Shown here: in pieces, positions 5,049-53,641 of the stretch | How positions within the stretch are numbered: the stretch's first letter is position 1 | How the letters are laid out: each line of letters starts with the position of its first letter | Source of the DNA: an uncultured Gammaproteobacteria bacterium | GTDB lineage: Bacteria; Patescibacteriota; Patescibacteriia; UBA9934; CAZDDW01 | Reading direction: 5' to 3' | Length of the DNA: 64,000 nt | Assembly (NCBI GenBank): GCA_965231015.1 | Contig: OZ246408.1 | Coordinates: 147,755 to 211,754 of the forward strand | Notes under the pieces: generated by a model | The model's database searches: none | What the model was told of the DNA's origin: nothing | Seen by the model: the letters and a program-made list of their open reading frames with translations, nothing else | Translations under genes and position numbers: made by a program

Positions 5049-6062
5049 ATGGCTTCACTTCGAGAAATTTCACCAAAGGAAGAAAAAGAAATCATGGAAT
5101 TTACAAAAAAATACGGCCTGGATGGAGCCCGGACTTTTCTTTCTTGTGAATACGGAGATGAATTCAGAGACACTGTTTTAAAGATTGATGAACGCATGGA
5201 CCGGGAAACCGCAGAATTGGTCTTTGCTCGGTATGGAGAGGTGGTGCAAGCGGCGCAAAATGTGGTTTCTGAAATAGAGGATTATCTTGGCTCGTCTGCC
5301 AAGGAGCAACTTGATCCGACCAAGTTGGAACAGAAGCTACTAGAAAAAGCCAAGGATTTTTTGGTTGATGTATCGGCTCAAGATTCTAAAAGGTTAGACG
5401 ATAAACTGAAAAGTTTTACTGCTGACGTGCAGCTTTTTGGAAATATTTTCAGAAGCTTGTTCAAAGGAAAGGAAAACCCGGATCTATCGATGGTTAAAAA
5501 TGTCGAGGTGGTCAGCCGGGAGGCGCAAGAAATCGATCAGAAGGACCAAGCAGCCATGCTCGATATTGCTGACAAGAACTGGCAAGAGATTCCGCGTATG
5601 CATGATTTTGTGGTCGGGTTGTTAAAGAAAAGCGTGGAAAATCCCAAGGAAGGTTCTGAGTTTAAGATTATGAAAAAAGATAATGACGTTCTGGCTTTTA
5701 TGCGGGTGGACAAGGGAGAAGATGGGTCAGCTCATATTGGATCCGTCAATGTGAATCCGAAATACCGCGGTTCAGCCATTGGTGAAGTCATGCTTAATCA
5801 GGCCGTGGAGCAGTTGGCAGCAGATCATGTAGTTAAACTTGAGGCTTATCCTGGTTCTTTGATTACGGTGGTTTACTGTGAAAAGTTTGGTTTTGTGGTG
5901 GATGGGGTGCATGAGATTCCGGTCGAAGGTGATGAACCGTTGTATGGATTCAACATGAAGCGAGATAATAAAGCGAATGAAAAGTATACAGCTCGAGCAG
6001 AACAGTTGGATCCTGAAAAACTGGTCAAGTTATCACAGAAACCAAACGAGGCCAAAAGTTAG
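5049..6062 (+). CDS. hypothetical protein with C-terminal GNAT N-acetyltransferase domain
   Basis: C-terminal YRGSAIGEVMLNQAV, a GNAT motif A-like pattern (R/Q-x-x-G-x-G/A). Confidence 0.55.
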   Translation: MASLREISPKEEKEIMEFTKKYGLDGARTFLSCEYGDEFRDTVLKIDERMDRETAELVFARYGEVVQAAQNVVSEIEDYLGSSAKEQLDPTKLEQKLLEKAKDFLVDVSAQDSKRLDDKLKSFTADVQLFGNIFRSLFKGKENPDLSMVKNVEVVSREAQEIDQKDQAAMLDIADKNWQEIPRMHDFVVGLLKKSVENPKEGSEFKIMKKDNDVLAFMRVDKGEDGSAHIGSVNVNPKYRGSAIGEVMLNQAVEQLAADHVVKLEAYPGSLITVVYCEKFGFVVDGVHEIPVEGDEPLYGFNMKRDNKANEKYTARAEQLDPEKLVKLSQKPNEAKS

Positions 6063-6149: not shown

Positions 6150-6968
6150 CTAGCCGGTTGTTTGCTGATCCGAATGATCCTGATTCTCGAGTTGTGGTTT
6201 TTGAGAAGGCAAGTTAGAACAAGTAAACAATGCTTTAATGGTTGAGCGCATGGTTTTAGCCAAGCTCGGACTTTCAATAATCACGGCAATCATATTTTCG
6301 TGATCCATAAAGGCAACATTGTTTCCAAAAACACTAATATCCCCGGTAAAGGGGTATTTTTGTTCATCAATGACTGAAGCCTGACGCAGTTCAGACTGAC
6401 TTCGGCTCATCATTTCGGATACTCGTTTACTTGAGGAGCTCATCACAGCGAAAACCGGAATTTGGGCGGCAACGCGCTGTTTTAAATACGAGCCACGTAA
6501 CCACTTGAGCAGTGTGGTTTCTTGAGCTGGCGGGCCGATTAAGCTGTAAATCGGCTGGCCGGTTTTAAGAATGGTTTGGTACACCTCTTTCATGCCGCTG
6601 ACCCCTTCAAAGACTCGAAAAGCCGGTTTTTTGGTAATTAAGTTGAAATGGCTCTTTAGGGAAGGAAGAGTAGAATCGAGCTGGGAATATAAATTTTGCA
6701 CAGATTCAAGCCGGGCTTTAGCTAAACCACGCAAACGCTCCGGATCAACTGCTCGAAAGACAGTCTTTTTGCCAGTTTCTTCAATAACCAGCCCTTTTTC
6801 TTTTAAAGACGTTAAAACATTATAGGTATTGCCGCGGCCTAAATCAGTGAGTTTTACGAGTTCTGCTGCTGGTTTTGGTCCATATTCAAGCAAAACCTCG
6901 TATATTTGAACTTCTGAGCTGTTTAGACCAAGCTCTAAAAGGATAGGGAAATGGATTTCATGAGGCAT
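6150..6968 (-). CDS. TrmB-family transcriptional regulator
   Basis: N-terminal winged HTH ELGLNSSEVQIYEVLLEYGPKPAAELVKLTDLGRGNTYNVLTSLKEKGLV, typical of TrmB (PF01978). Confidence 0.7.
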   Translation of the reverse strand: MPHEIHFPILLELGLNSSEVQIYEVLLEYGPKPAAELVKLTDLGRGNTYNVLTSLKEKGLVIEETGKKTVFRAVDPERLRGLAKARLESVQNLYSQLDSTLPSLKSHFNLITKKPAFRVFEGVSGMKEVYQTILKTGQPIYSLIGPPAQETTLLKWLRGSYLKQRVAAQIPVFAVMSSSSKRVSEMMSRSQSELRQASVIDEQKYPFTGDISVFGNNVAFMDHENMIAVIIESPSLAKTMRSTIKALFTCSNLPSQKPQLENQDHSDQQTTG

Positions 6969-6981
6969 ATGGAGGGAGAAG

Positions 6982-7005
6982 GTAAAAGGTAAAGGGTAAA
7001 AGGGG
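6982..7005. repeat. purine-rich tract ggtaaaaggtaaagggtaaaagg; complementary to the pyrimidine-rich tract at 7376-7401 across the Avd-like gene
   Basis: Direct reading of the sequence. A related pair occurs at 9173-9188 and 9207-9234. Confidence 0.7.
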
Positions 7006-7086
7006 CTAAGTTTGCTGGGATTTTCTTAGGGCGGCAAGGGAAATCCAGAGTTGTTCGGTTAAAGCTCGAGTTTCGTTCCAGGAAGT

Positions 7087-7362
7087 TTAAGTGATGTATC
7101 CCTGATTAAGGGCGATTTTTAAGCAGGCGTCGGTTTCTGTTAGTGAGCCAAGAGCAATATTGAGAAAGCGTACGAATTCGGGTTTGGTGTTTCTGGAGCT
7201 CTCTTCAGCTAAATTAAGGTAAATTGAGATTGAAGCCCGGCGAATTTGGCTCGTTAGACCGAATTTTTCCTCGTCCGGAAAGCCTTTACTTAGGGAATAC
7301 ACTTGATTGACATAGTCTAAAATGACCTGGTTAACCCTTAGTTGTTCATATCGAAATTCCAT
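7087..7362 (-). CDS. four-helix-bundle protein of the Avd / 23S-rRNA-intervening-sequence protein family
   Basis: 91 aa. Sequence EFRYEQLRVNQVILDYV...FGLTSQIRRASISIYLNLAEE...FVRFLNIALGSLTETDACLKIALNQGY matches the four-helix-bundle family (TIGR02436/PF05635). No rRNA is present in the window. Confidence 0.7.
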   Translation of the reverse strand: MEFRYEQLRVNQVILDYVNQVYSLSKGFPDEEKFGLTSQIRRASISIYLNLAEESSRNTKPEFVRFLNIALGSLTETDACLKIALNQGYIT

Positions 7363-7375
7363 ATTTTGATTTCTT

Positions 7376-7401
7376 TTACCTCTTTCCTTTTTCCCTTTAC
7401 C
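7376..7401. repeat. pyrimidine-rich tract ttacctctttcctttttccctttacc; partner of 6982-7005
   Basis: In the minus-strand mRNA it becomes a purine-rich 5'UTR that can pair with the pyrimidine-rich 3'UTR, enclosing the ORF in a long stem. Confidence 0.6.
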
Positions 7402-40035: not shown

Positions 40036-40770
40036 ATGCGAGGTGAAATTGGGGGAAAATCCACAAGACATATCGGTTGGACCGTGTTAGCGGTGGTGCT
40101 TTTGATAATTTTAGCTCTTTTTGCCCTTCGGGTAATTATTATTTACGACAAGATTAGTAGAGGTGATTACCATGATTTAGCTATTGATTTTAGTGGATAT
40201 GTGAGCACAGGGCAGGGTTTGGTAGAAAGTAGTGATGACGAGGTGTATGATGTGGCGACAGAAGATGACCCGAGTTTTGGTCCTGATGGTGCGCCCTTAA
40301 CCATTGTGCAGTTTGCTGACTTTGATTGTCCGTATTGTGCAGATACCGCCTACACTGTTCGCCGCTTGCAAGGTCGGTATCCGGATCAAATTAAGTTTAT
40401 CTTTCGCGATTTTCCGATTACAGAAAATCATCCCGATGCTCAGTTAGCCGCCGAGGCAGCTGAGTGTGCCAACGAACAAGGAAAGTTTTGGGAGTTCCAT
40501 GATAAATTGTATCAGAACCAGTCAGATCAAAGCCGTGAGGTGTTAAAAAGATTCGCTGTTGAACTTAACATGGATTACAATGAATTTGTTGGTTGTTTAA
40601 ATAGTGGCCGTTATCGAAGTGAGGTTCAGGAAGATTACGCTGATGGAGTTATGGCCGGAGTTTATGGTACACCAACGTTCTTTTTTAACGGTCATCGAGT
40701 TCAGGGAGCAATTCCTGACGACGTTTTTTCACTCATCGTCGATGCTTTTTTAACGGGTACTGCCGAGTAG
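40036..40770 (+). CDS. DsbA-family thiol:disulfide oxidoreductase (membrane-anchored)
   Basis: TM anchor then the thioredoxin fold, with the CPYC active site in QFADFDCPYCA. Start set at ATG 40036; the track start 39883 is an upstream extension. Confidence 0.75.
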   Translation: MRGEIGGKSTRHIGWTVLAVVLLIILALFALRVIIIYDKISRGDYHDLAIDFSGYVSTGQGLVESSDDEVYDVATEDDPSFGPDGAPLTIVQFADFDCPYCADTAYTVRRLQGRYPDQIKFIFRDFPITENHPDAQLAAEAAECANEQGKFWEFHDKLYQNQSDQSREVLKRFAVELNMDYNEFVGCLNSGRYRSEVQEDYADGVMAGVYGTPTFFFNGHRVQGAIPDDVFSLIVDAFLTGTAE

Positions 40771-40771
40771 T

Positions 40772-42283
40772 ATGAAAAGAATGAAAAAAATAGGATCAAT
40801 TTTTGTAGCGTTGTATGCGTTTGCTTTTATTTTTGCTTTGCCTGCGACTGTTTTAGCAGCCGAGAATTGTGTTTGTTGGTGTGGGTTAGAAGGAGCCGGA
40901 GCCGTGGTAGCTGAAGGACCGACTACAATAGAAGGCTGTCGAGCCGGTTGCGATACAGCTAATATGGAATTTCTGACTTGTGCTGAAGAAGGCGATTATG
41001 ATCCGACCAATAATCTAATCTGCTGGTCAGAAACAGAATGTGCTACTGCTGAAGGTATTTGGGGAGACGATATTCCAAAAGATTGTACGGACAACACTCG
41101 TTATTGTTACAACCAAGCCGAGCCGGTTAAGCTCGGTGTGGCAGTCGGTGGAATCAGTACCGTTAATGATATCGGAGAGTACGTCAACGCCTTTTATAAA
41201 TGGACTTTGTCAGCCGGAGTAATTGTGGCCACAGTTATAATCATGGTTGGTGGCGTGCAGTACATGGTGGGTAAAGGTTCAGGAAATGTCCAAAAGGCTA
41301 AGGATCGAATTCGTCATGCGGTAATTGGATTTGTTTTGTTGCTCGGAGCGTACATTATTTTGGCCACGGTTAATCCACAATTAGTTAGTTTAGAAATTCC
41401 AACCTTCCCGAAAGTTAAAACCGTTCATTATCTTGGTGACGAAGACAACTGCGATAAATTAATCGGTCATGGCTATAAAGTTGAATTGGAAAATGGAACC
41501 GAAGTGAGTACAACCGACGCGACCATTATGGCTCTCTTGCGATCTGGTCAAACTCTGGGTGCACTCGGGAAGTCCAGTTTGAGTTGCGGGACAGAAGCCA
41601 CAGTGACAGCTGGTCCGGGGGACTCTGAAGTTGAAGAAGATAAAACCTGTTTCTTCACCTATTGTCCAACCGGTGAAGGTTGTATTCCTCCGTCAGCTGG
41701 AGAACCACCAGAGTGTATTGGGTGTACTGATATCGTCGGTTTTCAAGCAGGAAAGCCACAGCCAAGCGAAAGTACTTGCAGTATGATTACCTATCCCAAC
41801 TCCGGCAATACTAAACGTTACTGTGTATATTCTCAAACCGGACTCTTGTCACCTTTGCAGGCTGACGACATTAAAGCTCATGGTGGTTGTGGTGAGTTGA
41901 CAGTTGATTGTAGTAGCATTTCTTCCTGCCGAGATTATGATGAAGCCACTGTTAGTATCACGGCAACTAAAGTCGTTGAGTGCGTTTCAGGGGCTGGTAT
42001 TGCCGCTTTTAATCCATCAATTTTTTCCAACCTCTGTAATAGTGATCCCTGTAACGTTGCCCCGGACGGTCAAAGTTGTGGTCCGAAATTTACGTACCTG
42101 AATGATGTTTCTGAAGCCTTTCAATTAGGACCACTACCAGCCAGTTTTTATCCGGGGTTACCGAATGTCCAATGGGATTGTGTAAATACTAATTACAAAG
42201 AAACTGGTTGTTTGGATAAAGATAATAAGGACATCACTTGTTGGGATGTTGAGGGAACTACTGGAGCTTGTTTGAGGTTTTAA
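40772..42283 (+). CDS. Cys-rich secreted protein with central pilin-like pair of TM helices
   Basis: Signal peptide, about 35 Cys residues, and an internal segment WTLSAGVIVATVIIMVGGVQYMVGKG...HAVIGFVLLLGAYIILATV that resembles the VirB2/TrbC two-helix topology. Confidence 0.45.
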   Translation: MKRMKKIGSIFVALYAFAFIFALPATVLAAENCVCWCGLEGAGAVVAEGPTTIEGCRAGCDTANMEFLTCAEEGDYDPTNNLICWSETECATAEGIWGDDIPKDCTDNTRYCYNQAEPVKLGVAVGGISTVNDIGEYVNAFYKWTLSAGVIVATVIIMVGGVQYMVGKGSGNVQKAKDRIRHAVIGFVLLLGAYIILATVNPQLVSLEIPTFPKVKTVHYLGDEDNCDKLIGHGYKVELENGTEVSTTDATIMALLRSGQTLGALGKSSLSCGTEATVTAGPGDSEVEEDKTCFFTYCPTGEGCIPPSAGEPPECIGCTDIVGFQAGKPQPSESTCSMITYPNSGNTKRYCVYSQTGLLSPLQADDIKAHGGCGELTVDCSSISSCRDYDEATVSITATKVVECVSGAGIAAFNPSIFSNLCNSDPCNVAPDGQSCGPKFTYLNDVSEAFQLGPLPASFYPGLPNVQWDCVNTNYKETGCLDKDNKDITCWDVEGTTGACLRF

Positions 42284-42450
42284 CAATTGAAACAATCGGT
42301 TCAGAATGGGCCGGTTTTCCCCGCCAACGGTTCTACGTGGCGGAGTCCCGCCACGATTTGCGATGGCGGGATTTGTTTTGTTTACCCTTGTCTCTTGTCA
42401 GATAAAAAAATATGTGTTATCATCTCGAGCACTTGTAATAAAACCAAATT

Positions 42451-45312
42451 ATGAAAGATGCTATCAAAATTAGAGGCGCTCGAGTTCATAACCTTAAGAA
42501 CATCAACGTTGATATTCCGAAGAATAAATTAGTGGTTGTGACCGGACTCTCTGGTTCTGGTAAATCGTCTTTAGCCTTTGATACTGTCTATGCTGAAGGA
42601 CAGCGACGCTACATGGAGTCGCTTAGTTCTTATGCTAGGCAGTTTTTAGAAATGCAAGATAAACCAGATGTCGATGAAATTATTGGTTTGTCACCGACTA
42701 TTGCTATTGATCAAAAATCTTCTTCACACAACCCTCGCTCTACAGTAGGAACTGTCACTGAGATTTATGATTACCTGCGAGTGTTGTTTGCCAGAGCCGG
42801 TCGGCCACATTGTCCAGAGTGTAACGAGCCTGTATGCGAACAAACTCGAGATAAGATTGCTGCCGAATTAATCACCATGGTTTCAGAAAGCGAAGTTGGT
42901 TTATTTGCACCAGTGGTTGATTCGCAAAAAGGTGAACACAAACAAGTTTTACTCGCTGCGGAAAAGGCTGGTTTCAAAGAAATTCGTTATGATGGTTTAC
43001 AAATGGATTTGGATGAGTCTATTCGTATGCGTAAGGATAAAAACAAGGCTCACTCGATCGATATTTTGATTCACACGTTTATTAAAGACGAGGAAATTTC
43101 CCGGGAGCGCATGAACGATATTTTGAAAAAAGCCCTCGACTATGGCAACGGTCTGATTTTGGCAGTGCATGAATCAGATGGCGAAGAAATTATTTTTTCT
43201 GAATCGTTTGCGTGTCCTAATTGTCACATTAATCTTCCACGTCCTGAACCACGAATGTTTAGTTTCAACTCGCCGCTAGGTGCTTGTCCTGAATGTACTG
43301 GTCTGGGAGTGAAGTTGGTGTTAGAGCCAGATTTGGTAATTCCCAACAAGCGTCTGACTTTTGCTGAAGGAGCCGTGAAGCCTTGGACTCGGATTGCTGG
43401 AAACCAAACTAGTTATTTGCGAATGCTTGAACTAGTGGCCAAGAAACACAAGTTTTCTGTCAATCAATCAATTAGTAAAATTTCTAAAACTAAAATAGAT
43501 CTAGCTCTTTACGGAACTGGTGATGATATCTATAAGTTTGACGGAGCTGAAGTAACGTACCCGGGAATTATTCCGCAGCTAGAAGAAAAGTATAAATCAA
43601 CTGATTCTGATTATGTACGTAGCGAATTAGAGACTTACATGCGGACCATGGTTTGTCCTGATTGTAAAGGTAAACGTTTAAGGAAGGAAGTTTTACATGT
43701 ATTAATTGGAAACAAGTCGATTGCTGACGTGGTCAACATGTCGATTGAAGACATGTCTGGTTTCTTTGATGATATTTCTAGGAAAGAATCTAAAGGCAAA
43801 AAAGCAAAAGATAAAAAAGTTGCCGCCGACATGTCAGAGGCCGAAACCAAGGTAATCAATCGGGTAAAAAAGGAAGTAACTGAACGACTGCATAATTTGC
43901 TTGATGTGGGATTAGGTTATCTAACTCTAGACCGGTCAGCCATGACTCTGTCTGGTGGTGAAGCTCAGCGTGTTAGACTTTCAACTCAATTAAGTTCGTC
44001 ACTTTCTGGAGTAATCTATATTTTAGATGAGCCATCTATTGGTCTGCATCCCAGAGATAATGACAAACTGATCAAAACCATTGAAACTTTACGCGATCAA
44101 AACAACAGTGTGATTGTTGTCGAACATGATGAGGCCATGATGGCGGCAGCTGATCATGTGATTGATGTTGGTCCAGGGGCTGGTGAGTATGGCGGAGAGA
44201 TTATTGCCGAGGGAACTGCAGCAGCTTTGAAGAAAAACAAAGAGTCATTAACGGGACAGTACTTAAGTGGAAAGAAAAAGATAGAAACTCCCAAGAAGTT
44301 TCGAAAAGGATCTGGCAAGAAATTGACTATCGAAGGAGCTAAAGCCAACAACTTACAGGATATTAACGTTGAAATCCCGCTTGGTAAATTTGTTTGTGTC
44401 ACCGGAGTGTCTGGATCGGGAAAGTCAACTTTGATCTTAGATATTTTGGGCCGAGCTTTGTCTAAACATTTCTACCGAGCGAAGGCTTATCCGGCCGACC
44501 ATGAAGATATTAAGGGTATTAATAATATCGATAAAGTTGTGGCTGTTGATCAGTCGCCAATCGGACGCACACCTCGCTCTAATCCAGCAACTTACACAGG
44601 AGTGTTTACGGCTATTCGTGATTTGTACGCAGCTCAACCGGAAGCCAAGATGCGTGGTTTTGACGCTGGAAAATTCAGTTTTAATGTTAAAGGTGGTGGT
44701 CGATGTGAAGGTTGTGGTGGTGATGGAGTAAAAAGAATTGAAATGCAGTTTATGGGTGATGTGTACGTTGAATGTTCTGAGTGTCACGGTAAACGGTATA
44801 ATCACGAGGCCCTCGAGATATATTACAAGAGTAAAAATATTGCTGACGTGCTTGATATGACGGTGGAGGAAGCTCGCCGGTTCTTTGCCAGTGAACAATT
44901 GATTTTTGATAAGTTGAACGTGTTGCACGAAGTTGGACTCGGTTACATCAAGCTTGGGCAATCAGCCACCACACTTTCTGGTGGTGAGGCACAACGTGTG
45001 AAGCTTGCCACTGAACTTGGACGACGGGCTACGGGAAGCACTTTGTATATTTTGGATGAGCCAACAACCGGACTTCACTTTGAGGATATCAAACGTTTAC
45101 TCGAGGTACTGCATCAACTGGTCGATAAAGGAAATACCGTTTTGATTATTGAACACAACCTGGACGTGATTAAACAAGCGGACTGGTTGATTGATATGGG
45201 GCCGGAAGGTGGAAACAAAGGCGGTCTTATTATTGCCGAGGGAACACCAAAAGAGCTCTCGAAAAATGGCAAAGTCAGCTATACGGCCAAGTATTTGAAA
45301 GAGGTGCTTTAG
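42451..45312 (+). CDS. uvrA: excinuclease ABC subunit A
   Basis: Two ABC ATPase modules ([12 protein letters not shown] and [11 protein letters not shown] Walker A) and Zn-finger Cys clusters. 953 aa. Confidence 0.95.
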
Positions 45313-45331
45313 ATTGATACATATTTTGTTA

Positions 45332-45362
45332 AACCAGCGTTTTATTAACGCTGGTTTTTTTT
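45332..45362 (+). terminator. rho-independent terminator of uvrA
   Basis: aaaccagcgttttattaacgctgg followed by tttttttt. Confidence 0.8.
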
Positions 45363-45364
45363 AC

Positions 45365-45413
45365 GCCTAAAATTAGGTCAAATCTTGACAAAGACACAAA
45401 ATGGTGCTATATT
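45365..45413 (+). promoter_or_regulatory. promoter-bearing repeat A (gcctaaaattaggtcaaatcTTGACAaag-N-TGcTATATT), left boundary of the DGR cassette
   Basis: A near-identical ~40-bp copy lies at 48405-48445, immediately after the RT stop. Confidence 0.75.
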
Positions 45414-45558
45414 TTGACCTTGATCATTCAAATTTCAAGGTTAAAATTTATATGAGATAAGTATTTTGTCTGGCTCGTTTGAGCTATGTAGAATACTTGT
45501 CTCATGTTAGAGACCGGTCGTTTATCCGAACGAGTCGGATGGTTGGCCAAAAAAGGAG

Positions 45559-46470
45559 ATGATGATGACGACGGAAACGTTGATCACGTCACGGGATCCC
45601 AAGGGCAGACAGTGCTTCAGTGTGCTCGAGGCCGTCTATGACAAGGCGGAGCTCAACCCCGAGGAAGCACAGCACATCAACGAACAGGGCTATGAACTCA
45701 AGCGCGAGTTTCAGAAACTGATCGCCCGTTTGCGTGTCCGTCAGGATTACGCCAACGAGCAGGTGATCTCGAGCTACACCTACCCGAACGAGTACGCGGG
45801 CCCGCAGCCTATCGCCGAGCAGGTGGACATTCTGGCCGAGTTGTTCGGCCTGTCGCTCGGAGCAACGGTTGAGTACATTGAGAAGGTGCTACCCTCGCTC
45901 GAGCTTCCCAAGGGAGCCGAGGGGTGGTTCGCCATCCCGAGTGTCGGCGCTCTCGCTGCCCGTCACTTCCCCAAGGTCACCGATCCGGCCGAGCAGTACT
46001 GCCGCGCGGTCGAGCTGGTGCTCAAGAAGATCAGTCACTCGCGGAAGTTCTACAACTACCGCCAGGGGCAGATCAATCCGAACCAGCTGCGCCAGTATGC
46101 TAGCAGTATGGCCATGATGGAGCAGACCGTCAAGAACCAGCCAGGCGACATCATGATCATCCCGGCCCAGTTCGGTCTGCGTCACCGAGGATGCAGTGTC
46201 CGTCGAGCCCGAGCTATTTTCACCAAGAACGAATTCGGCCTCGGAGCGCTCGCTGTTGGTTCAATGCTCCTCACTCATCCCAAGCGCCTTGTCCGTTGGG
46301 AACAGCTCCACGTGGACTGCACGGGTGATGAATTTGCTCCGGTTGCTGGTGGCCAGTTCGTGCACGCGCCGTTCTTCGACTGGCTCGGCGGCGGAGTCGG
46401 GTTCTACTCCGGCCGCCTCGACAACGCGCGCGTGTACTATGGTTCGGCCTCCGGGTTTCTCCCGCAGTAG
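45559..46470 (+). CDS. DGR target (variable) protein; cytoplasmic-type N-terminus, C-terminal variable region
   Basis: SD aaggag. 303 aa. GC-rich relative to its surroundings. The last ~43 codons form the VR, which matches the TR at all positions except those where the TR carries an adenine. Confidence 0.8.
   Translation: MMMTTETLITSRDPKGRQCFSVLEAVYDKAELNPEEAQHINEQGYELKREFQKLIARLRVRQDYANEQVISSYTYPNEYAGPQPIAEQVDILAELFGLSLGATVEYIEKVLPSLELPKGAEGWFAIPSVGALAARHFPKVTDPAEQYCRAVELVLKKISHSRKFYNYRQGQINPNQLRQYASSMAMMEQTVKNQPGDIMIIPAQFGLRHRGCSVRRARAIFTKNEFGLGALAVGSMLLTHPKRLVRWEQLHVDCTGDEFAPVAGGQFVHAPFFDWLGGGVGFYSGRLDNARVYYGSASGFLPQ
46338..46468 (+). repeat. DGR variable repeat (VR)
   Basis: 131 bp aligned to the TR at 46849-46979 without gaps. 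There are 23 mismatches, and every one sits at a TR adenine. Confidence 0.85.
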
Positions 46471-46528
46471 TTGAACCTTGTTCTTTGAGGACTTGAATCT
46501 TTTGAGCCCTTGAAGCTTTTCGTTAAAG

Positions 46529-46584
46529 CCCCGCCCGCGGCGGGGCGAACCTGTCGGCTATCCACAATACGCGTGGGTAGCCGA
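46529..46584 (+). promoter_or_regulatory. two GC-rich hairpins downstream of the VR (gccccgcc-cgcg-gcggggc; cggctatccac...gtgggtagccg); candidate target-gene terminator and/or DGR homing-associated stem-loop
   Basis: Inverted repeats read directly from the sequence, 60-115 bp past the VR. Confidence 0.45.
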
Positions 46585-46603
46585 CTGTTAATTTTGCTAT
46601 AAT
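46575..46603 (+). promoter_or_regulatory. extended -10 promoter (tgcTATAAT) upstream of the TR
   Basis: ccgactgttaattttgcTATAATg. Weak -35. Confidence 0.45.
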
Positions 46604-46848
46604 GTTCGCGAGTAAGGCTAATGAACAGTAGTTCAAGGATTACTGTCGCCAAGCTCTCTCTTCAAAGAGAACAACAGCCAGAATCTTGACGGTTACGGCT
46701 TTCAAGAGCGTGCTGTCTTGAGGGGATACTGCTTGTTTCTGTCTGGTGGAGATGTTTTGTAAACATAACAAAACTGCTCCCAAATAAAATACAGGAAAGA
46801 GAAAATGGATTTTCAATTTTCAGTGACCAGGATGGACAGAAACAATAA

Positions 46849-46979
46849 TCCGGATGCTGGTGGCCAGTTCGTGAACGCACCGAACTTCAACTGGAACGAC
46901 GGCAAAGTCAAGTTCAACACCGACAACCTCGACAACGCGAACGTGAACTATGGTTCGACCTCCGGGTTTCTCCCGAAGT
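46849..46979 (+). repeat. DGR template repeat (TR)
   Basis: Adenine-rich. The AAC codons in TR correspond to the variable codons in VR. The track ORF 46805..47041 is the TR read in the VR frame, not a gene. Confidence 0.85.
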
Positions 46980-46995
46980 CACTCCTCAATAACAA

Positions 46996-47022
46996 AAGAC
47001 GTCCTGTAACGGACGCCTTTTG
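46996..47022. terminator. bidirectional hairpin terminator between TR and avd
   Basis: aaaagacgtcctgtaacggacgccttttg. Confidence 0.6.
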
Positions 47023-47027
47023 TATTA

Positions 47028-47378
47028 TTATTCAGATTTAAGTGAGCGTATCCATCCTCCAAGCATGCGTCCGATTTCATCTACCTGTTGTTGCAAGGGA
47101 GTATATTTGTTGTTGTCGATAATTTTGATGTCCTTGGCCAGGCGAATTAAAAATCTAAGTAGGTTAAGTCGAACACTAACTTTTTCTAATGTCGGTAGTT
47201 TATTGTGTTTATACAGCTCGCTGGCTTGCAGAATACCTTCAATATTATCCAGGTTAGCATTTTCAATTCTTTGCCATAGAGTATGTTTATCCTGTTTTGG
47301 TATACTGGGGCGGAGAATATAAATGTTTCGATACAATTCGTAAGATTTTTTGAAGATGGGAATGTCAAACTCGTCCAT
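47028..47378 (-). CDS. avd: DGR accessory variability determinant (Avd)
   Basis: About 116 aa from the internal Met. C-terminal VDEIGRMLGGWIRSL matches the Avd hallmark (compare Bordetella phage Avd ..EVGRILGSWIARV). Basic four-helix-bundle pattern. Inverted relative to TR and RT. Confidence 0.7.
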   Translation of the reverse strand: MDEFDIPIFKKSYELYRNIYILRPSIPKQDKHTLWQRIENANLDNIEGILQASELYKHNKLPTLEKVSVRLNLLRFLIRLAKDIKIIDNNKYTPLQQQVDEIGRMLGGWIRSLKSE

Positions 47379-47387
47379 ATAATAAGT

Positions 47388-48405
47388 GTGAAGATTGATA
47401 AGAATATTTTTGATTCGATTATTGATCCGGAGTCTCTTTTTCAGGCTTGGCAGAAGTTTCGGAATGGTAAAAGCAAACGTAAGGACGTAACTCAATTTGA
47501 GTGGAATTTGGAGAGTAATATTTTCAAGCTACATCGTGATTTAGTCAATGGAATTTATCGACACGGGTCATACACTGATTTTTACATCACTGATCCAAAA
47601 TTGCGCCATATTCACAAGGCTACGGTGCGGGACAGGATTGTACATCACGCCGTGTATCAAGTTGTAAATACAATCTTTGAGCGATCATTTATTTTCGACA
47701 GTTACTCCTGTCGGATTGGCAAGGGTACACATGCGGCAGTGAATCGACTCGAGAAGTTCGTTCGTAAGGTGAGCAAAAATTACACTGGTCCATGTTGGGC
47801 GCTTCAGTTTGATGTGAAAAAATTTTTTGATTCCGTTGATCATGACATTTTACTTAGTATTCTCAAACAAAAAATCTCCTGTCCAAAGACAAACCGTCTT
47901 TTGGCGGAGATCGTGGGCAGTTACTCGAGTTCAAATTCCGTTGGGGGGGGGGACGCTACTTGGAACCATTCGCGCGAAAGGTCTCCCGATTGGGAATTTA
48001 ACCTCGCAGTTGTTCGCGAACGTGTATATGGATGCATTTGATCATTTTATTAAAGAGGGGTTAAGAGCGCAGTGTTATCTACGCTATACTGATGATGCTT
48101 TGATTATTCACGAAGATCCGAAATATTTGAGTCTGCTCGTGCCATTTATTCAGCACTGGCTTTGGCAGAACAGGTGTCTTGTTTTGCATCCTTATAAAAC
48201 ATCTATCCGAAAATATTCGCAAGGGATTGATTTTCTTGGCTATGTTAATCTGCCACATTATCGAGTGCTTAGGACAAAAACCAAGAAGCGCATGTTTAAC
48301 CGCATTGATGAAACAAATCTGTCTTCATATTTGGGGGTTTTGTCTCATGCTGATACTCACAAAATGCAAGATAACTTGTTAAATATAGTTTGGTTTGAGC
48401 TTTAG
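47388..48405 (+). CDS. DGR reverse transcriptase, interrupted by a +1 frameshift in a G10 tract (47944-47953)
   Basis: RT motifs: TVRDRIVHHAVYQVV, FDVKKFFDSVDH, KGLPIGNLTSQLFANVYMD (the DGR-specific I/LGxxxSQ signature), YLRYTDD. The two halves are the track ORFs 47283..48041 and 47827..48405. The start is uncertain (ATG 47283 or GTG 47388). Confidence 0.8.
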
Positions 48406-48453
48406 CCTAAAATTAGGTCAAATCTTGACAAAATGAGCGAATGGTGCTAAGGT
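48405..48453 (+). promoter_or_regulatory. promoter-bearing repeat B (gcctaaaattaggtcaaatcTTGACAaaa...), right boundary of the DGR cassette
   Basis: Identical to repeat A over ~30 bp, then diverges. The -10 is degenerate (TAAGGT). Begins at the RT stop codon. Confidence 0.7.
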
Positions 48454-48490
48454 CATATCTCACAAAATTAACTAAAACAAGCCTAAAAAT

Positions 48491-50182
48491 ATGTTTAAAA
48501 AACTAATTAGTCTTATTGCTGTGCTCGGAATTCTGGGTGGATTTATCCCAGTCAGTCCAGCAATTGCCGGTTCGGAGACGACCCTTGAGGCCGACCGAGT
48601 TTGGCACTATGACGGGTACCGCGTGGAGCGCCTTGATTTTGGCACCGATGAAGTCGACGAAATAATTAAAATCGACGACTACACTATCATTACCGTGCGT
48701 ACTCCTGGTTGTGATTCTGAATGCAATATCCGCGATCTTTATTTTATTGAAAACGGAAATTACACTCATGTTGAAGACGTTCCTGGGTATGTCCTTGATG
48801 AAGCCAATTATTTCGCCAATGATGAGCGTTTCGTTTGGATTGAACTTATGAATGAAGACGAGGAAAACCGTTACAACGTGGTTGAGTACTTGCCCGGGAC
48901 CAATGAAAAAGTTGTTGTTTTAGAAGATCTGTTTTTCAGTGGTGTAGAGTCAATCAAAGCGATTGCCTCCGGAGATGAGTATTATATGAACCCGGTGTAC
49001 AACTATGACAACCACCAAGGGTTCAAACAGGCTGCGGTTTACAAGTACTTTCCTGATATTGGACTGACTGAAATAATCACTAAGCACTGGGAACTTCAGA
49101 ACGAGGAAGTTTTGGATGCCCATGACGGCATGTTACTAACACAAATGAATTTTGATAGTGACTATAAACAGCTCTGGCTTTATGGAGATGGTGAATGGCC
49201 GTACGCTCTTGCCGACACCTGGACTGTGCCACATGAAGATATTGTTGGGGCACACTTCCTGTCAGATGGATCGGTTGAGTTTTTTCGCATGTATGAACGC
49301 TACATTTGGACTCCCGGTGAAGATGGTGGTGTAACCGAAGCTCAAGGAGACTATCTTAGCTGGTACCGTGATTTTGAGGATGCACTACAGATCGTAAATG
49401 GTCGTATGGCTTGGATTGATGCTGATGACAACCTGCGTGTTTCTACTGGAGATGGAATTATTGAACTTGGCAGTATTGGTTCGACCGGTATATTCCGTTT
49501 AGAGGATGATCGCATCTTCTATGACTCCGGAGAGTCCGGTCATTTATATGATTTTTCTACTGACTCCAGTGAAATTGTTGGTTTTGCTGCCACTGATTCA
49601 GCTGAAGGGGTAATGGTTGGTACCGATGTATTGAATAATATCCTGTATATTGAAGAAAGCACCGGAACCGAGTTAACCCTTGGCTATGGTTCAATTCCGT
49701 TCGTGACTGATGCTAATCACATTTATTGGGTTGGTAATGACGGCCATGCATATGAGGCTACTATTAGCCCTGGAACAATCGCTGATACGGACGATGTAAC
49801 GGCTGCCATGACTAGTTCAAGCAATACAGTGTATCTGGTTGACGGATCAGAATATTACGAGATTCCAAGCGAAGACGTATACTTTAGTTGGTTTGATAGT
49901 TTTGAGGCAGTTGAACTCGTTGATAGTTCTTGGTTCAATGCTTACGACTATGCCGGAACAGCACAATTGTCTCCAGGAACCACTGTAAAACTTGAGGGAG
50001 ATCCTAAGCTTTATATGGTTGGAGATGATGGCAAGTTGCATTGGCTTATCAGTCAGGCGGTAGCTTATTCAATCTACGGAAGTGAGTGGAATCAGAATGT
50101 GATTGAGATGAACTATGAACAGTTAGTGCCGTACGCTTACGGCGTAAATGTGACAAGTGAAGCTGATATTCTCGAGATCTAA
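48491..50182 (+). CDS. hypothetical secreted protein
   Basis: Signal peptide MFKKLISLIAVLGILGGFIPVSPAIAG. 563 aa. Confidence 0.55.
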   Translation: MFKKLISLIAVLGILGGFIPVSPAIAGSETTLEADRVWHYDGYRVERLDFGTDEVDEIIKIDDYTIITVRTPGCDSECNIRDLYFIENGNYTHVEDVPGYVLDEANYFANDERFVWIELMNEDEENRYNVVEYLPGTNEKVVVLEDLFFSGVESIKAIASGDEYYMNPVYNYDNHQGFKQAAVYKYFPDIGLTEIITKHWELQNEEVLDAHDGMLLTQMNFDSDYKQLWLYGDGEWPYALADTWTVPHEDIVGAHFLSDGSVEFFRMYERYIWTPGEDGGVTEAQGDYLSWYRDFEDALQIVNGRMAWIDADDNLRVSTGDGIIELGSIGSTGIFRLEDDRIFYDSGESGHLYDFSTDSSEIVGFAATDSAEGVMVGTDVLNNILYIEESTGTELTLGYGSIPFVTDANHIYWVGNDGHAYEATISPGTIADTDDVTAAMTSSSNTVYLVDGSEYYEIPSEDVYFSWFDSFEAVELVDSSWFNAYDYAGTAQLSPGTTVKLEGDPKLYMVGDDGKLHWLISQAVAYSIYGSEWNQNVIEMNYEQLVPYAYGVNVTSEADILEI

Positions 50183-50238: not shown

Positions 50239-50877
50239 TTATTTCATCCAGGTTTCTTTCAGTTTTCGTTTGAAGCGACGTTTTACATTGCGTAGGAAAC
50301 CGAGCTTGGCTTGGCGGACCCGAGCAACCTTGACCACTTCAATCTTGGTCACGTTTGGTGAAGAAAGTGGGAATACTTTTTCCACACCAATTCCACCACT
50401 TACTTTACGAACAGTGATGGTGCGTTTGTTTCCGGCGCCCTTCACTCCAAGGACGATCCCTTCAAACACCTGAATTCGTTCTCGTTCTTCACCCTTTGGT
50501 GAAATGTCCAGAATTCGCTCATGTACTCGGACGGTCATACCGGACTTCACTTCTTCACTACCGATCATTTTCCCTTTGTGACCACTGGTGTCTTGCATCT
50601 CTTCAGAGATTGGGGAAGGTGGTTCCTTGTCCGCCGAATTTTTCTGTTCAGGCTCAACATGTTGAGCCCCTACATCTGAATCCTCTTGATCCTTTGTTTC
50701 TTCTGTATCCCCTACATCCTTTGGAGCTTCTTCCTTTGGCTCTTCCTTCTTCGCTGAGGCTTCAGAGGAGGAATCAGCTGGTTTTTCTTCTTGTTTTGAT
50801 TCTACAGGAGCCTCTTGATCCTTTGTTTCTTCCGCATCCTTTGGATCTTGTGCACCCTTCTTATCTTCATCAGCCAT
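50239..50877 (-). CDS. rplS: 50S ribosomal protein L19 with long acidic/Lys N-terminal extension
   Basis: C-terminal ~115 aa, VRVHERILDISPKGEERERIQVFEGIVLGVKGAGNKRTITVRKVSGGIGVEKVFPLSSP, matches bL19. Confidence 0.8.
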   Translation of the reverse strand: MADEDKKGAQDPKDAEETKDQEAPVESKQEEKPADSSSEASAKKEEPKEEAPKDVGDTEETKDQEDSDVGAQHVEPEQKNSADKEPPSPISEEMQDTSGHKGKMIGSEEVKSGMTVRVHERILDISPKGEERERIQVFEGIVLGVKGAGNKRTITVRKVSGGIGVEKVFPLSSPNVTKIEVVKVARVRQAKLGFLRNVKRRFKRKLKETWMK

Positions 50878-53430: not shown

Positions 53431-53641
53431 GGCTGCTGGGCGGCTAACGCCAAACAGTGGCGCCAAAAATCGACCACTAGAAAAAGTGGCCGGTTTTTTT
53501 TTGACTAAATATTGGGTACGGGATAAGTTTAGATCTGAACCTTTGTCAGGGAGGTCAACAGTGGCCAATATTACTTTTCGTCGTCAGGTGGCCAAGCATC
53601 CAGGGGACTTTTCGTCCGAGCTTGTCCGTAAAGTCGTTCGC

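Follow-up and report, generated by a model that had tools for sequence, protein, structure and literature searches.

Locus 45365-48453 of the window, which is the whole 64,000-nucleotide stretch of DNA that was analysed, is almost certainly a chromosomal diversity-generating retroelement (DGR) of the CPR (Patescibacteria) type, and its reverse transcriptase (RT) gene is interrupted by a run of ten G's. The main reading is that RT expression is slippage-gated, with DNA tract-length switching turning the mutator on and off. This reading is given a probability of roughly 0.6. The cassette consists, in order, of a target gene with a C-terminal variable region (VR), a structured template region (TR) RNA, avd on the opposite strand, and the RT. 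It is identified as a DGR because the TR/VR pair differs only at adenines, Avd matches a curated family, the best match of the RT is the BPP-1 bRT, and RNA elements of the DGR type surround the TR. The sequence-only reading had called the locus a complete and textbook DGR. The identification is now backed by tests; the words "complete" and "textbook" are dropped, since the RT is out of frame at the G10 tract, avd is inverted, and the target has no detectable C-type lectin fold. The DGR is a new member of an already known kind, and the gated RT probably a new variant.

Target gene and template repeat

The target gene is located on the plus strand at 45559-46470 and encodes 303 aa as a maximal ORF, with a GC3 of 0.77. 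In the public annotation, the gene begins at 45565 (301 aa), 6 nt downstream of AGGAG. Profile and structure-model searches of the protein detected neither a known domain nor a C-type lectin fold; the model is modest (pLDDT 68), and the absence of a lectin fold is not established by it. By inspection, the N-terminus has no hydrophobic segment and no signal peptide, in agreement with the earlier description. The GC content of the target is 0.58-0.63 versus about 0.38-0.45 in the surroundings. The contrast reported before (60% against about 43%) is therefore real, and the recent import that it implied is not upheld. In each of the 10 homologous loci examined, GC3 is higher in the target than in the genes next to it, although in one locus only slightly; the high GC is therefore a trait of the target family and not evidence of recent foreign origin.

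The VR (46338-46468, plus strand) is the last 131 nt of the target gene, and the TR (46849-46979, plus strand) contains 34 A and nine AAC codons in the VR frame. The two align without gaps over 131 nt with 23 mismatches, and the TR base is A at 23/23. The substitutions from TR to VR are 11 A>G, 7 A>T, and 5 A>C; the VR keeps 11 of the 34 adenines of the TR, and every TR position with C, G or T is identical in the VR. The probability that all 23 mismatches fall on the 34 A positions by chance is 1.2e-17. Homology ends at the upstream boundary, with 4 non-A mismatches in the 12 nt before 46338. The realignment reproduced exactly the counts and the repeat boundaries that had been read from the sequence alone. 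The AAC codons were also correctly placed at the variable positions: eight of the nine are altered in the VR, to H, F, D, L, Y, R, R, and Y. When the span is extended to whole codons, which includes codons just outside the repeat, codon position 1 or 2 holds 25 of 27 mismatches. A search of the 64-kb window for a second VR found none.

The same pattern is found in relatives. The hypervariable columns of 38 target homologs coincide with the A-carrying TR codons, and the entropy is 2.25 bits at columns opposite these codons versus 0.73 at other VR columns. In nine related cassettes, the TR lies 326-415 nt after the stop, with 0-3 non-A versus 12-27 A mismatches.

The cassette is bracketed by a direct repeat of 45 nt (45365-45409 and 48405-48449, both plus strand; 87% identity, 3040-nt spacing), found by repeat search. 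Its first 28 nt occur exactly twice in 64 kb versus 0 expected. The left copy contains the 5-2-5 palindrome CCTAAAATTAGG and the best promoter-like site of the region (TTGACA at 45385-45390, a spacing of 17 nt, and TGcTATATT ending at 45413; 11/12 score with TG). The right copy, with TTGACA, 17 nt, and TGcTAAGGT, is located upstream of the next gene (48491-50182). The N-terminus of the protein from that gene is signal-peptide-like.

Structured RNA and avd around the template

Several hairpins on the plus strand lie between the target and the TR RNA, and the fold of 46471-46600 has a z of -5.6. The first hairpin after the target stop (46483-46515, motif CTTGAATCTTTTGA) has conserved columns in an 11-locus alignment. 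By analogy, it is a candidate element for target-site recognition, standing where BPP-1 has its IMH-adjacent hairpin. It is followed by a GC-only hairpin of 8 bp at 46528-46546 (GCCCCGCC-CGC-GGCGGGGC), and a similar hairpin is present in L009 and L021. The terminator scan showed a terminator-like hairpin of 13 bp with a T-rich tail at 46553-46585, probably the end of the target mRNA; its stem contains the DnaA-box-like CTATCCACA. This hairpin, as TATCCACA...TGGGTA, recurs in L006, L021, L060, L062, and L142. A candidate extended -10 promoter (TGcTATAAT, 46596-46606, plus strand) may drive the TR RNA. Its TATAAT column is conserved directly upstream of the conserved RNA in 9-11 loci.

The 5' domain of the TR leader RNA (46610-46717, plus strand) contains two covarying hairpins, H1 (46616-46650) and H2 (46675-46715). 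The covariance model R1 has a single match in the window (102.7 bits, E 2e-22). Of the loci from genomes it matches 44 of 80, and of those from metagenomes 17 of 68. Covariation was measured with 45 matches, all on the RT strand save one marginal match (L065, E 0.0015). In these, 96% of cells are paired versus 62% when shuffled and 42% when slid, and double changes are found in 23/25 pairs. The Rfam search of the leader RNA gave no family at E<=1. Helix H3 is formed by the plus-strand arms 46733-46744 and 46834-46845. RNAalifold on nine loci gave it 12 pairs, most with compensatory changes. The 3' arm terminates 4 nt before the start of the TR, possibly at the point where cDNA synthesis ends. 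The TR lies within this conserved, strongly covarying RNA. The TR also sits inside a mechanical ORF of 78 aa (46805-47041); the covarying RNA helices across 46616-46845 speak for RNA and not protein here.

A long-range duplex is predicted across the TR between 46719-46726 (UUGAGGGG) and 46983-46990 (CUCCUCAA), both on the plus strand, the latter 4 nt after the TR. A duplex of 8-11 bp is predicted in 9/9 loci; in L007 and L126, the sequence of both strands is entirely different, yet they still pair. A stem-loop follows at 46992-47023, with a stem of 7 bp and 5 bp interrupted by a one-base bulge, a loop of 6 nt, and flanking A and U runs. It folds on both strands (z = -4.3 and -5.2) and resembles a terminator acting in both directions, on the TR RNA and on avd. 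An equivalent stem-loop of 9-12 bp follows the TR in most of the nine aligned loci. [quoted passage not shown] 2024), and the duplex and the stem-loop of the window match these by position. The roles of the RNA elements, putative by this analogy, are stated conditionally below, as are the start and end of transcription.

The avd gene (47028-47378, 116 aa) is on the minus strand, head-to-head with the RT and 9 bp apart. Its product matches NF033474 'DivGenRetAVD' with 91 bits, above the curated cutoff of 80, and PF22296 bAvd with 1.9e-22. An Avd gene between TR and RT had been recognized before, and the HMM check agrees; its strand had been missed. The divergent avd/RT arrangement is common to nearly all CPR loci examined. 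Inverted avd is the B3 architecture, present in 90% of CPR DGRs (Wu et al. 2018, PMC5758913). The window resembles the CPR DGRs (B3; clade 2, PMC8144416) in the order of target, TR, inverted avd, and RT, in the host lineage, and in a target without recognisable domains, and nothing separates it from this clade.

With the BPP-1 DGR (mtd-VR / avd / TR / brt; PDB 8ub7), the window shares the adenine-specific flow from TR to VR, the VR at the 3' end of the target gene, the four-helix-bundle Avd partner, an RT with the I/LGxxxSQ motif, an RNA duplex between sequences on the two sides of the TR, and a stem-loop directly behind the TR. It differs in being chromosomal and not phage-borne and in having a target with no recognisable lectin fold or signal peptide. 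Because avd is inverted and located after the TR, the duplex takes its upstream strand from a dedicated structured leader of roughly 240 nt and not from the avd coding sequence. The RT of the window also carries a 16-aa loop insertion relative to BPP-1 bRT that holds the poly-G tract, and it is out of frame.

Reverse transcriptase and its poly-G tract

The N-terminal part of the RT (47388-47952, plus strand) starts with GTG in frame 0 and contains motifs 1-3. It ends with the G10 homopolymer (47943-47952), which encodes a conserved V-GGG loop; a continuous frame would need one G fewer. The C-terminal part (47953-48405) is in the +1 frame and contains GLPIGNLTSQ (motif 4), YTDD (motif 5), and the thumb. 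Frame 0 read through G10 reaches a stop at 48041, giving a 217-aa fragment without the catalytic motifs. When one G is deleted (G9), an RT of 338 aa is obtained, with motifs 4-7 restored to frame. The IGNLTSQ motif and the DGR type assigned to 47388-48405 before were right; the single ORF was not. The public database contains a truncated 252-aa RT product (P0009) with the same frame break.

The best sequence match of the RT is BPP-1 bRT (8ub7, E 6e-41) versus 4e-17 for a group II RT. BPP-1 bRT is also the best structural match and the closest solved relative (E 3.5e-20, TM 0.74-0.76). The RT model is confident (pLDDT 82.6), and its only disordered internal loop is the tract-encoded one, with residues 184-191 below 50. 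Identity to many Patescibacteria RTs is 50-72%. A second RT, P0001, is in frame and 72% identical; the two halves are equally conserved to it (N-terminal 73%, C-terminal 70%). P0001 probably belongs to the same genome as the window RT and might make it dispensable, an observation that bears against gating.

G10 is the only G or C run of at least 8 in the 64-kb window. A pure G7-G14 tract is found at the same RT loop in 68 related RT genes. The three closest genome loci having this loop (L064, L072, L081) are all G10 and all out of frame, and beyond these the metagenome scan gave 64 RT genes with G7-G14 at this site; the scan demanded at least 8 G's, and the frequency of tract-free loops is not derivable from it. 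The length has a mode of 9-10 and reaches 14. Of the 39 unique states whose two halves are both long and open, only 9 read in frame; 16 would be restored by removing one nt and 14 by adding one, a split that does not differ from 1:1:1 (chi-square p = 0.37). Tract lengths are unequal in four contig pairs that are 99.7-99.9% identical over 1-4 kb (L102/L138, L120/L134, L106/L085, L083/L099). The tract is the sole indel in three of them; L083/L099 has a second gap. The in-frame relatives L146-L149 keep uninterrupted runs of G9 or G11, even though glycine is least often encoded by GGG here (16%); three such codons in a row have a P of 0.004. In an unbiased set, 24 of 81 RT genes carry a tract of at least 8 G's, always as sense-strand poly-G and at three different positions. 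The flanks contain 5 such tracts in 732 kb; the RT genes are 39-fold denser (P = 1e-29). Across these sequences, the G run is not a private lesion of this RT.

Proposed gated expression and competing explanations

In the proposed mechanism, a promoter near 46600 would give an RNA of roughly 400 nt that folds into the conserved leader. The TR would be looped out between the leader helix ending 4 nt before it and the long-range duplex beginning 4 nt after it, with the stem-loop next. The RT-Avd complex would copy the TR to cDNA with misincorporation opposite adenines, and the cDNA would take the place of the 131 nt at the 3' end of the target gene, with about 20 codons altered. The target is proposed to be a cytoplasmic protein of unrecognised fold. 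The tract inside the RT gene would gate RT production, with 9 G as the continuous frame and 10 G as the sequenced state, and slipped-strand mispairing would alter its length. It is quite likely that the tract is a maintained, functional slippage site. The odds are about even that it acts by DNA-level phase variation rather than by RNA or ribosome slippage. CPR DGRs (clade 2) are reported to have lower-than-average activity (Roux et al. 2021, PMC8144416), which is counted in favor of a gated RT and can also be claimed for decay.

Constitutive recoding is unlikely. Here the tract would be a programmed RNA-level slippage site, by polymerase stutter on the C-run template or a ribosome shift on GGG-GGG-G. 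With any tract of about 9 or more, a low but constant share of the product would be full-length RT; changes of DNA length would be close to neutral, and DGR activity would be permanent but low. The near-equal frame states among intact-looking genes (9, 16, 14) would be expected if DNA length matters little, the constant sense-strand poly-G is explicable by an RNA-level mechanism, and the tract is long with both RT halves conserved. Programmed frameshifting and transcriptional slippage (prfB, dnaX, IS3-family transposases) likewise use a conserved slippery homopolymer at a fixed place in the gene with both halves conserved. However, these classical systems have one fixed direction and site, whereas across the lineages both +1 and -1 corrections are needed, tract length varies, and in-frame alleles exist. 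The length differences in near-identical contigs show unstable DNA, which is enough alone for phase variation. In bacteria, efficient transcriptional slippage is known mostly from A/T runs, which also counts against recoding.

That the element is decaying is improbable. The RT would be a pseudogene hit at a mutation-prone homopolymer, the VR/TR differences would be frozen past activity, and the tract would have no function. The encoded product does end at 48041 without motifs 4-7, and most tract-bearing relatives are likewise out of frame. However, neither RT half, each with an open frame of at least 150 codons, has any other lesion; this holds both for the window and for the 30 out-of-frame states, which had been retained for both halves being long and open. 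The 131-nt TR/VR pair has no non-A mismatch, Avd and the covarying RNA are intact, in-frame relatives retain a pure tract against codon bias, and tracts arose at three places in RT genes, a sign that they are selected for. A sequencing or assembly error, by which the true length would be nine G's in an ordinary intact DGR, is very improbable: homopolymer length is the commonest error class, a one-base repair suffices, and some related assemblies are long-read-like by their record names, but the truncated ORF is identical in the NCBI and Logan assemblies (possibly from the same reads), 30 of 39 independent relatives that look intact, from many different projects and built with many assemblers, are out of frame both ways with lengths of 7-14, far above consensus error rates, and no other G or C run of at least 8 is present in the window to hint at a general problem.

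Some observations stand against gating itself. Homopolymers are prone to sequencing error, and some relatives are probably long-read assemblies (e.g. L081, by record name only). The NCBI and Logan copies of the window may share reads, and the in-frame minority (23%) also fits neutral decay or RNA-level recoding.

In the papers covered by the literature search, there is no report of slippage-gated RT expression, none of poly-G tracts in RT genes or of a covarying leader RNA in the CPR DGR clade, and none of phase variation in CPR bacteria. Slippage-gated expression finds its likeness in the poly-G/C contingency loci of Campylobacter, Neisseria, Haemophilus, and Bordetella fim. These share with the window a pure G tract of 8-14 nt within an ORF, on and off frames, unequal length between otherwise identical sequences, and strong enrichment in a single class of genes while the rest of the genome is poor in tracts. 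Most known contingency genes are for surface structures, restriction-modification enzymes, or modifiers of these, whereas in these uncultivated CPR hosts the switched gene would be the engine of a second, targeted mutation system. Switching within populations would then control mutagenesis: most cells would keep the current VR, and a minority would switch the mutator on. If this is true, a stochastic switch would be superimposed on a targeted hypermutator.

A CPR-type retroelement with a divided reverse transcriptase gene

The locus at 45365-48453 is almost certainly a diversity-generating retroelement (DGR), as the sequence-only reading had proposed, and the signature in its variable region (VR) and template region (TR) had been described correctly. 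The VR (46338-46468) and the TR (46849-46979) align over 131 nt without a gap, exactly as claimed, and both ends of the homology lie where they had been placed, with the 3' limit at 46468. The two regions differ at 23 positions. The TR base is A at all 23 (11 A>G, 7 A>T, and 5 A>C), and no mismatch falls on a C, G, or T of the TR. The TR contains 34 adenines in its 131 positions, 11 of which are unchanged in the VR; by chance, every one of the 23 differences would coincide with an adenine with a probability of 1.2e-17. When the TR is read in the VR frame, nine AAC codons are present, and eight of them are recoded in the VR to H, F, D, L, Y, R, R, and Y. A search demanding matches at the non-A positions of the TR returned no further VR-like copies in the 64-kb window.

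An alignment of homologs was used as a proxy for population variation in the VR. Across the 38 family members, the mean entropy opposite those window TR codons whose first or second base is A was 2.25 bits, versus 0.73 bits in the other VR columns and 0.88 bits in the remaining protein (Mann-Whitney p = 6e-7). In nine related cassettes the TR lies 326-415 nt past the target stop, with 0-3 non-A versus 12-27 A mismatches per cassette. A Logan contig from an independent assembly, obtained via exact-protein look-up of UvrA (L001, from SRR7048221), is identical to window 40048-46353 over 6.3 kb and ends at 46353, 16 nt inside the VR. The TR and the VR have no 31-mer in common, which indicates that the contig did not end through simple collapse of the repeat; VR heterogeneity or low coverage might be the reason. 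Exact-protein look-ups returned no record for Avd (two start choices), the 303-aa target, the downstream 563-aa protein, the truncated public product of the window RT (P0009), or a second, in-frame RT (P0001).

The reading of the ORF at 47028-47378 as the accessory protein Avd was borne out by the family models, with 91 bits against the NF033474 equivalog (cutoff 80) and 80 bits against PF22296 bAvd (cutoff 40). The avd gene is on the minus strand and starts 9 bp from the RT start (intergenic 47379-47387). Since the two starts are so close on opposite strands, each promoter must sit within the coding sequence of the other gene. In some relatives, the avd and RT ORFs overlap head to head. The order of target, TR, avd on the opposite strand, and RT, together with a Patescibacteria (CPR) host, is of the CPR type; the architecture was defined as B3 by Wu et al. 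2018 (PMC5758913). The inverted avd was found in almost all Patescibacteria-like loci (L002-L065), whereas the non-CPR relatives carry avd on the RT strand. The window DGR is a member of the known CPR clade (Wu B3, Roux clade 2).

The element had been called complete, which it is not as sequenced, since the RT is out of frame at a hypervariable poly-G tract. The span 47388-48405, given before as the RT, is split between two frames at a run of ten G (G10, 47943-47952). Frame 0 begins with GTG at 47388, continues through G10, and stops at 48041, giving a product without motifs 4-7. GLPIGNLTSQ, YTDD, and the thumb are encoded in the +1 frame, which runs to 48405. Removal of one G restores a 338-aa RT that aligns end to end with its homologs, and the gene is otherwise undamaged. 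The motif 4, GLPIGNLTSQ, is of the DGR type (I/LGxxxSQ). With one G removed from the tract, and only then, the RT matches that of the Bordetella phage BPP-1 DGR (bRT, PDB 8ub7). It is the best match in the PDB sequence search (E 5.8e-41, versus 4.4e-17 for the best group II intron RT), and 8ub7_A is the top Foldseek match of the AlphaFold model (pLDDT 82.6; E 3.5e-20, TM 0.74/0.76). A group II intron RT was rejected on these PDB matches and on a TIGR04416 score of 135 bits versus a cutoff of 300. A retron RT was rejected at 46 bits versus a cutoff of 235. No intron or retron RNA family was matched in 45200-48600 at E<=1 in Rfam. The second DGR-type RT, P0001, lies outside the window, is 72% identical, and is in frame (SVGGGAIL); its contig has the same recorded length (1,002,985 bp) as that of the window's proteins. 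The genome probably has two DGRs, and the second one could act in trans.

Structured RNA around the template region and the cassette surroundings

Three hairpins follow the target stop (fold z = -5.6). The first hairpin after the VR contains a motif conserved in 11 cassettes, and the last is terminator-like. In the terminator hairpin (46553-46585), the stem contains (T/C)TATCCACA, a match to the DnaA-box consensus TTATNCACA. The same stem recurs in L006, L021, L060, L062, and L142, among cassettes with a target identity of only about 40%; the likeness is either a coincidence or could mark a protein-binding site. A conserved TATAAT box, preceded by TG, is located at 46601-46606, 3' of the hairpins and 5' of a leader.

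The leader, about 240 nt long, can be aligned between cassettes with target identities of only 30-55%. RNAalifold on nine loci predicted 44 pairs, with compensatory changes in 30. Among the predicted pairs is a 12-bp long-range helix (H3), which joins 46733-46744 to 46834-46845 and ends 4 nt before the TR. A covariance model of the first two leader hairpins (R1, 108 positions) matched the window once (46610-46717, E 2e-22); it also matched 44 of the 80 loci from genomes and 17 of the 68 from metagenomes. All matches in the oriented genome loci are on the RT strand save for the marginal L065, and the distance to the downstream RT is mostly about 700-850 nt. Over 45 matches, 96% of cells were paired, versus 62% in shuffled and about 42% in slid alignments; the alignment is fitted to the model and so biased in its favor, and the margin is large. 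Changes on both sides were found in 23 of the 25 pairs. Rfam gave nothing relevant here at E<=1.

Pairing is also predicted next to the TR. Each of the nine loci has a predicted long-range duplex, which in the window joins 46719-46726 (UUGAGGGG) with 46983-46990 (CUCCUCAA), 4 nt after the TR. L007 and L126 have wholly different sequences on the two strands of the duplex, and these are still complementary. A stem-loop at 46992-47023 follows, with an equivalent in most of the nine aligned loci. Handa et al. 2024 predicted a 'cPRT Stop' duplex and an Avd-binding stem-loop in 207 of 278 DGRs, CPR included. The window RNA has both TR-flanking elements of that scheme, an upstream:downstream duplex and a stem-loop after the TR. 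By position, the window duplex resembles the 'cPRT Stop' duplex of the Bordetella phage RNA, and the window stem-loop resembles its Avd-binding stem-loop (Handa et al. 2024). No counterpart of the 5' two-hairpin domain of the leader was found.

The target gene (45559-46470) has a GC3 of 0.77, versus 0.37-0.43 in uvrA, avd, RT, and the downstream gene. The target GC3 is higher than that of the neighbors in 10 of 10 homologous loci (L002, L003, L006, L009, L011, L013, L021, L032, L060, and L062), and the excess over other long ORFs, where measurable, is 0.04 to 0.46. Recent horizontal transfer is unlikely on this evidence, as the same offset is present in all ten. A-depletion by off-target DGR mutagenesis was rejected: outside the VR, A and T are low to the same degree (0.22 and 0.19). 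The high GC3 is a standing, family-wide codon bias.

A 45-nt direct repeat brackets the cassette (45365-45409 and 48405-48449). Each copy contains a near-consensus promoter and a small palindrome. The -35 and -10 parts are identical between the copies, and the 8-nt spacer differs at six of eight positions. This spacer divergence makes a fresh target-site duplication or insertion scar doubtful, and the copies are more likely two similarly built promoters. The right copy precedes a gene at 48491-50182 with a signal-peptide-like N-terminus. Cassette-bracketing repeats of 41-101 nt, unrelated in sequence between loci, were found in four other CPR loci: L032 (4106-4178 / 7006-7078), L044 (2228-2268 / 5406-5446), L058 (1960-2060 / 7290-7390), and L021 (3432-3523 / 6926-7017). 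Such repeats suggest co-regulation or a mobility scar.

A T4SS-pilin-like gene (PF18895) is located upstream of uvrA at about 40781-42283 (L001 734-2236). A PF18895 gene is also found near the closest in-frame relatives, L146 (from 12580 onward) and L149 (from 7080 onward), and these two loci share RNase J, SBP_bac_5, and DsbA as neighbors. On the minus strand, 50239-50877 encodes what appears by eye to be a ribosomal-protein-L19-like C-terminal domain with a roughly 100-aa acidic, lysine-rich N-terminal extension.

Poly-G tracts in the RT genes of the family

The G10 at 47943-47952 is the only G/C run of at least 8 in the 64-kb window, where 0.08 runs of at least 10 are expected; the longest homopolymers besides it include a C7 at 10470 and a T9 at 53494. 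The tract lies 1.5 kb from the VR. It encodes part of a V-GGG motif directly before GLPIGNLTSQ, and the motif is conserved in the nearest RTs. GGG is the rarest Gly codon in the window (16%), and the probability of three consecutive GGG codons is 0.004. The tract-encoded residues (184-191) are the only internal segment with a pLDDT below 50 in the AlphaFold model; judged from this model, gain or loss of one glycine in the loop should be tolerated. Both halves of the RT are equally conserved relative to P0001 (73% and 70% identity). The public protein database holds the identical truncated 252-aa product, P0009, at 100% identity, with sources in NCBI and Logan.

Related RT genes were then compared at the same site. 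Among 80 related RT loci taken from species-representative genomes, the three closest loci with the loop (L064, L072, and L081) all have exactly G10 and are out of frame. A scan of metagenome contigs for at least 8 G followed by PIGNLTSQ codons returned 64 further RT loci. The loop tracts are 7 to 14 nt long, with a mode of 9-10. After near-identical contigs were collapsed and both halves were required to be open (at least 150 and at least 120 codons), 39 frame states remained: 9 were in frame, 16 had a surplus of one nucleotide, and 14 lacked one. This split is indistinguishable from equal thirds (chi-square p = 0.37). Four contig pairs, 99.7-99.9% identical over 1-4 kb, have unequal tract lengths. 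The tract is the sole indel in L102/L138, L120/L134, and L106/L085, and L083/L099 has one more gap. The loci L146-L149, chosen only as intact RT proteins, all carry an uninterrupted G9 or G11 in frame, and in each the tract is the sole G/C run of at least 7 within 8-13 kb.

Tracts are not confined to the loop. In an unbiased set of 81 RT loci, 24 (~30%) have a tract of at least 8 G within the RT gene or at its edge, and the G run is on the sense strand in every case. In 19 loci the tract is at the 5' end, where it separates the divergent avd from the conserved N-terminal part of the RT; in four it is in the loop, and in one near residue 310. The other 732 kb of these loci contain only five such tracts, a 39-fold difference (Poisson P = 1e-29). 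The occurrence of three tract sites within one gene family argues for selection for the tract itself.

The 5'-end tracts (G8-G12) were found in L019, L020, L026, L027, L030, L033, L035, L038, L039, L042, L045, L046, L048, L049, L050, L051, L055, L056, and L063. They sit in the short space common to the RT and the divergent avd, just upstream of the RT match. In at least 10 cases there is no start codon between the tract and the conserved N-terminus, which indicates that the tract must be translated. Among the 18 5'-end loci analyzed, the upstream ATG is in frame with the RT in 6 and out of frame in 11. In five 5'-end loci the tract falls within the promoter region or the 5' UTR; there it might also serve as a ribosome-binding site or alter avd expression. 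Tracts of G10-G12 were also seen near the C-terminal end of the RT or beside the RT in L016 (911), L093 (5198), L051 (3404 and 5253), and L117 (990 and 3207). L051 has two RT genes and three tracts.

A candidate switch of DGR activity and its meaning for CPR bacteria

The tract is probably a maintained slippage site. It has sequence features of a contingency locus: it is a long and pure homopolymer within a coding sequence, rare elsewhere, and its length polymorphism gives on and off frames. How slippage would be used is less certain. Phase variation at the DNA level is favored because the DNA length differs between near-identical sequences, and we regard it as about an even bet. The remaining reading is slippage at the level of RNA or of the ribosome, in which the DNA length would be nearly neutral; slippage of this kind would also be a gate on RT production.

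Simple decay of the RT gene does not fit several of the facts. The RT genes have no other lesions, the tract is kept pure in the in-frame alleles, every TR/VR mismatch of the window falls on an A of the TR, and neither Avd nor the RNA is damaged. About three quarters of the independent assemblies are out of frame, and in both directions, a share that sequencing error does not explain. Two other mechanisms were rejected. A classical programmed +1 frameshift would agree with the conserved site, but the direction of the correction is mixed (+1 in 16, -1 in 14, and none in 9). Division of the RT into two polypeptides is contradicted by the fused in-frame alleles and by the different frames among near-identical contigs.

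A more far-reaching reading, to which we assign a probability of roughly 0.5, is that the RT genes of many CPR DGRs carry a stochastic poly-G switch, whether at the 5' end, in the loop between motifs 3 and 4, or near the C-terminus, together with a CPR-specific leader RNA that presents the TR. With such a hypermutable poly-G tract, the targeted hypermutator would be active in only a minority of cells. A contingency locus placed over a DGR would be an evolvability device of two tiers. Alongside this switch, the CPR-specific structured leader may present the TR to the RT-Avd complex. Below-average signs of activity were reported for the CPR DGR clade (Roux et al. 2021, PMC8144416), which fits a gated RT. 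A search of the DGR and CPR literature for homopolymer or poly-G tracts, phase variation, frameshifts, and contingency loci found no report, and an earlier mention is possible.

Once a useful variant has been found, a cell must cease to rewrite its VR. To our knowledge, no dedicated off-switch of a DGR is known, and the restraint of mutagenesis is an open question. The most interesting feature of the locus is this tract, taken together with its like in about 30% of related RT genes; it is a testable candidate for how CPR DGRs are switched. If the tract were an error or a sign of decay, the locus would be just another member of a well-described clade. The covarying leader extends the BPP-1 RNA architecture to the inverted-avd layout and offers a defined RNA (about 46610-47030) for the reconstitution of a CPR DGR. 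Pipelines that require an intact RT ORF may under-count CPR DGRs. A gated RT would explain the lower activity of the CPR clade in population surveys (PMC8144416). If true, gating of the RT by a slippage-prone tract would be a simple and testable explanation of how DGRs are restrained.
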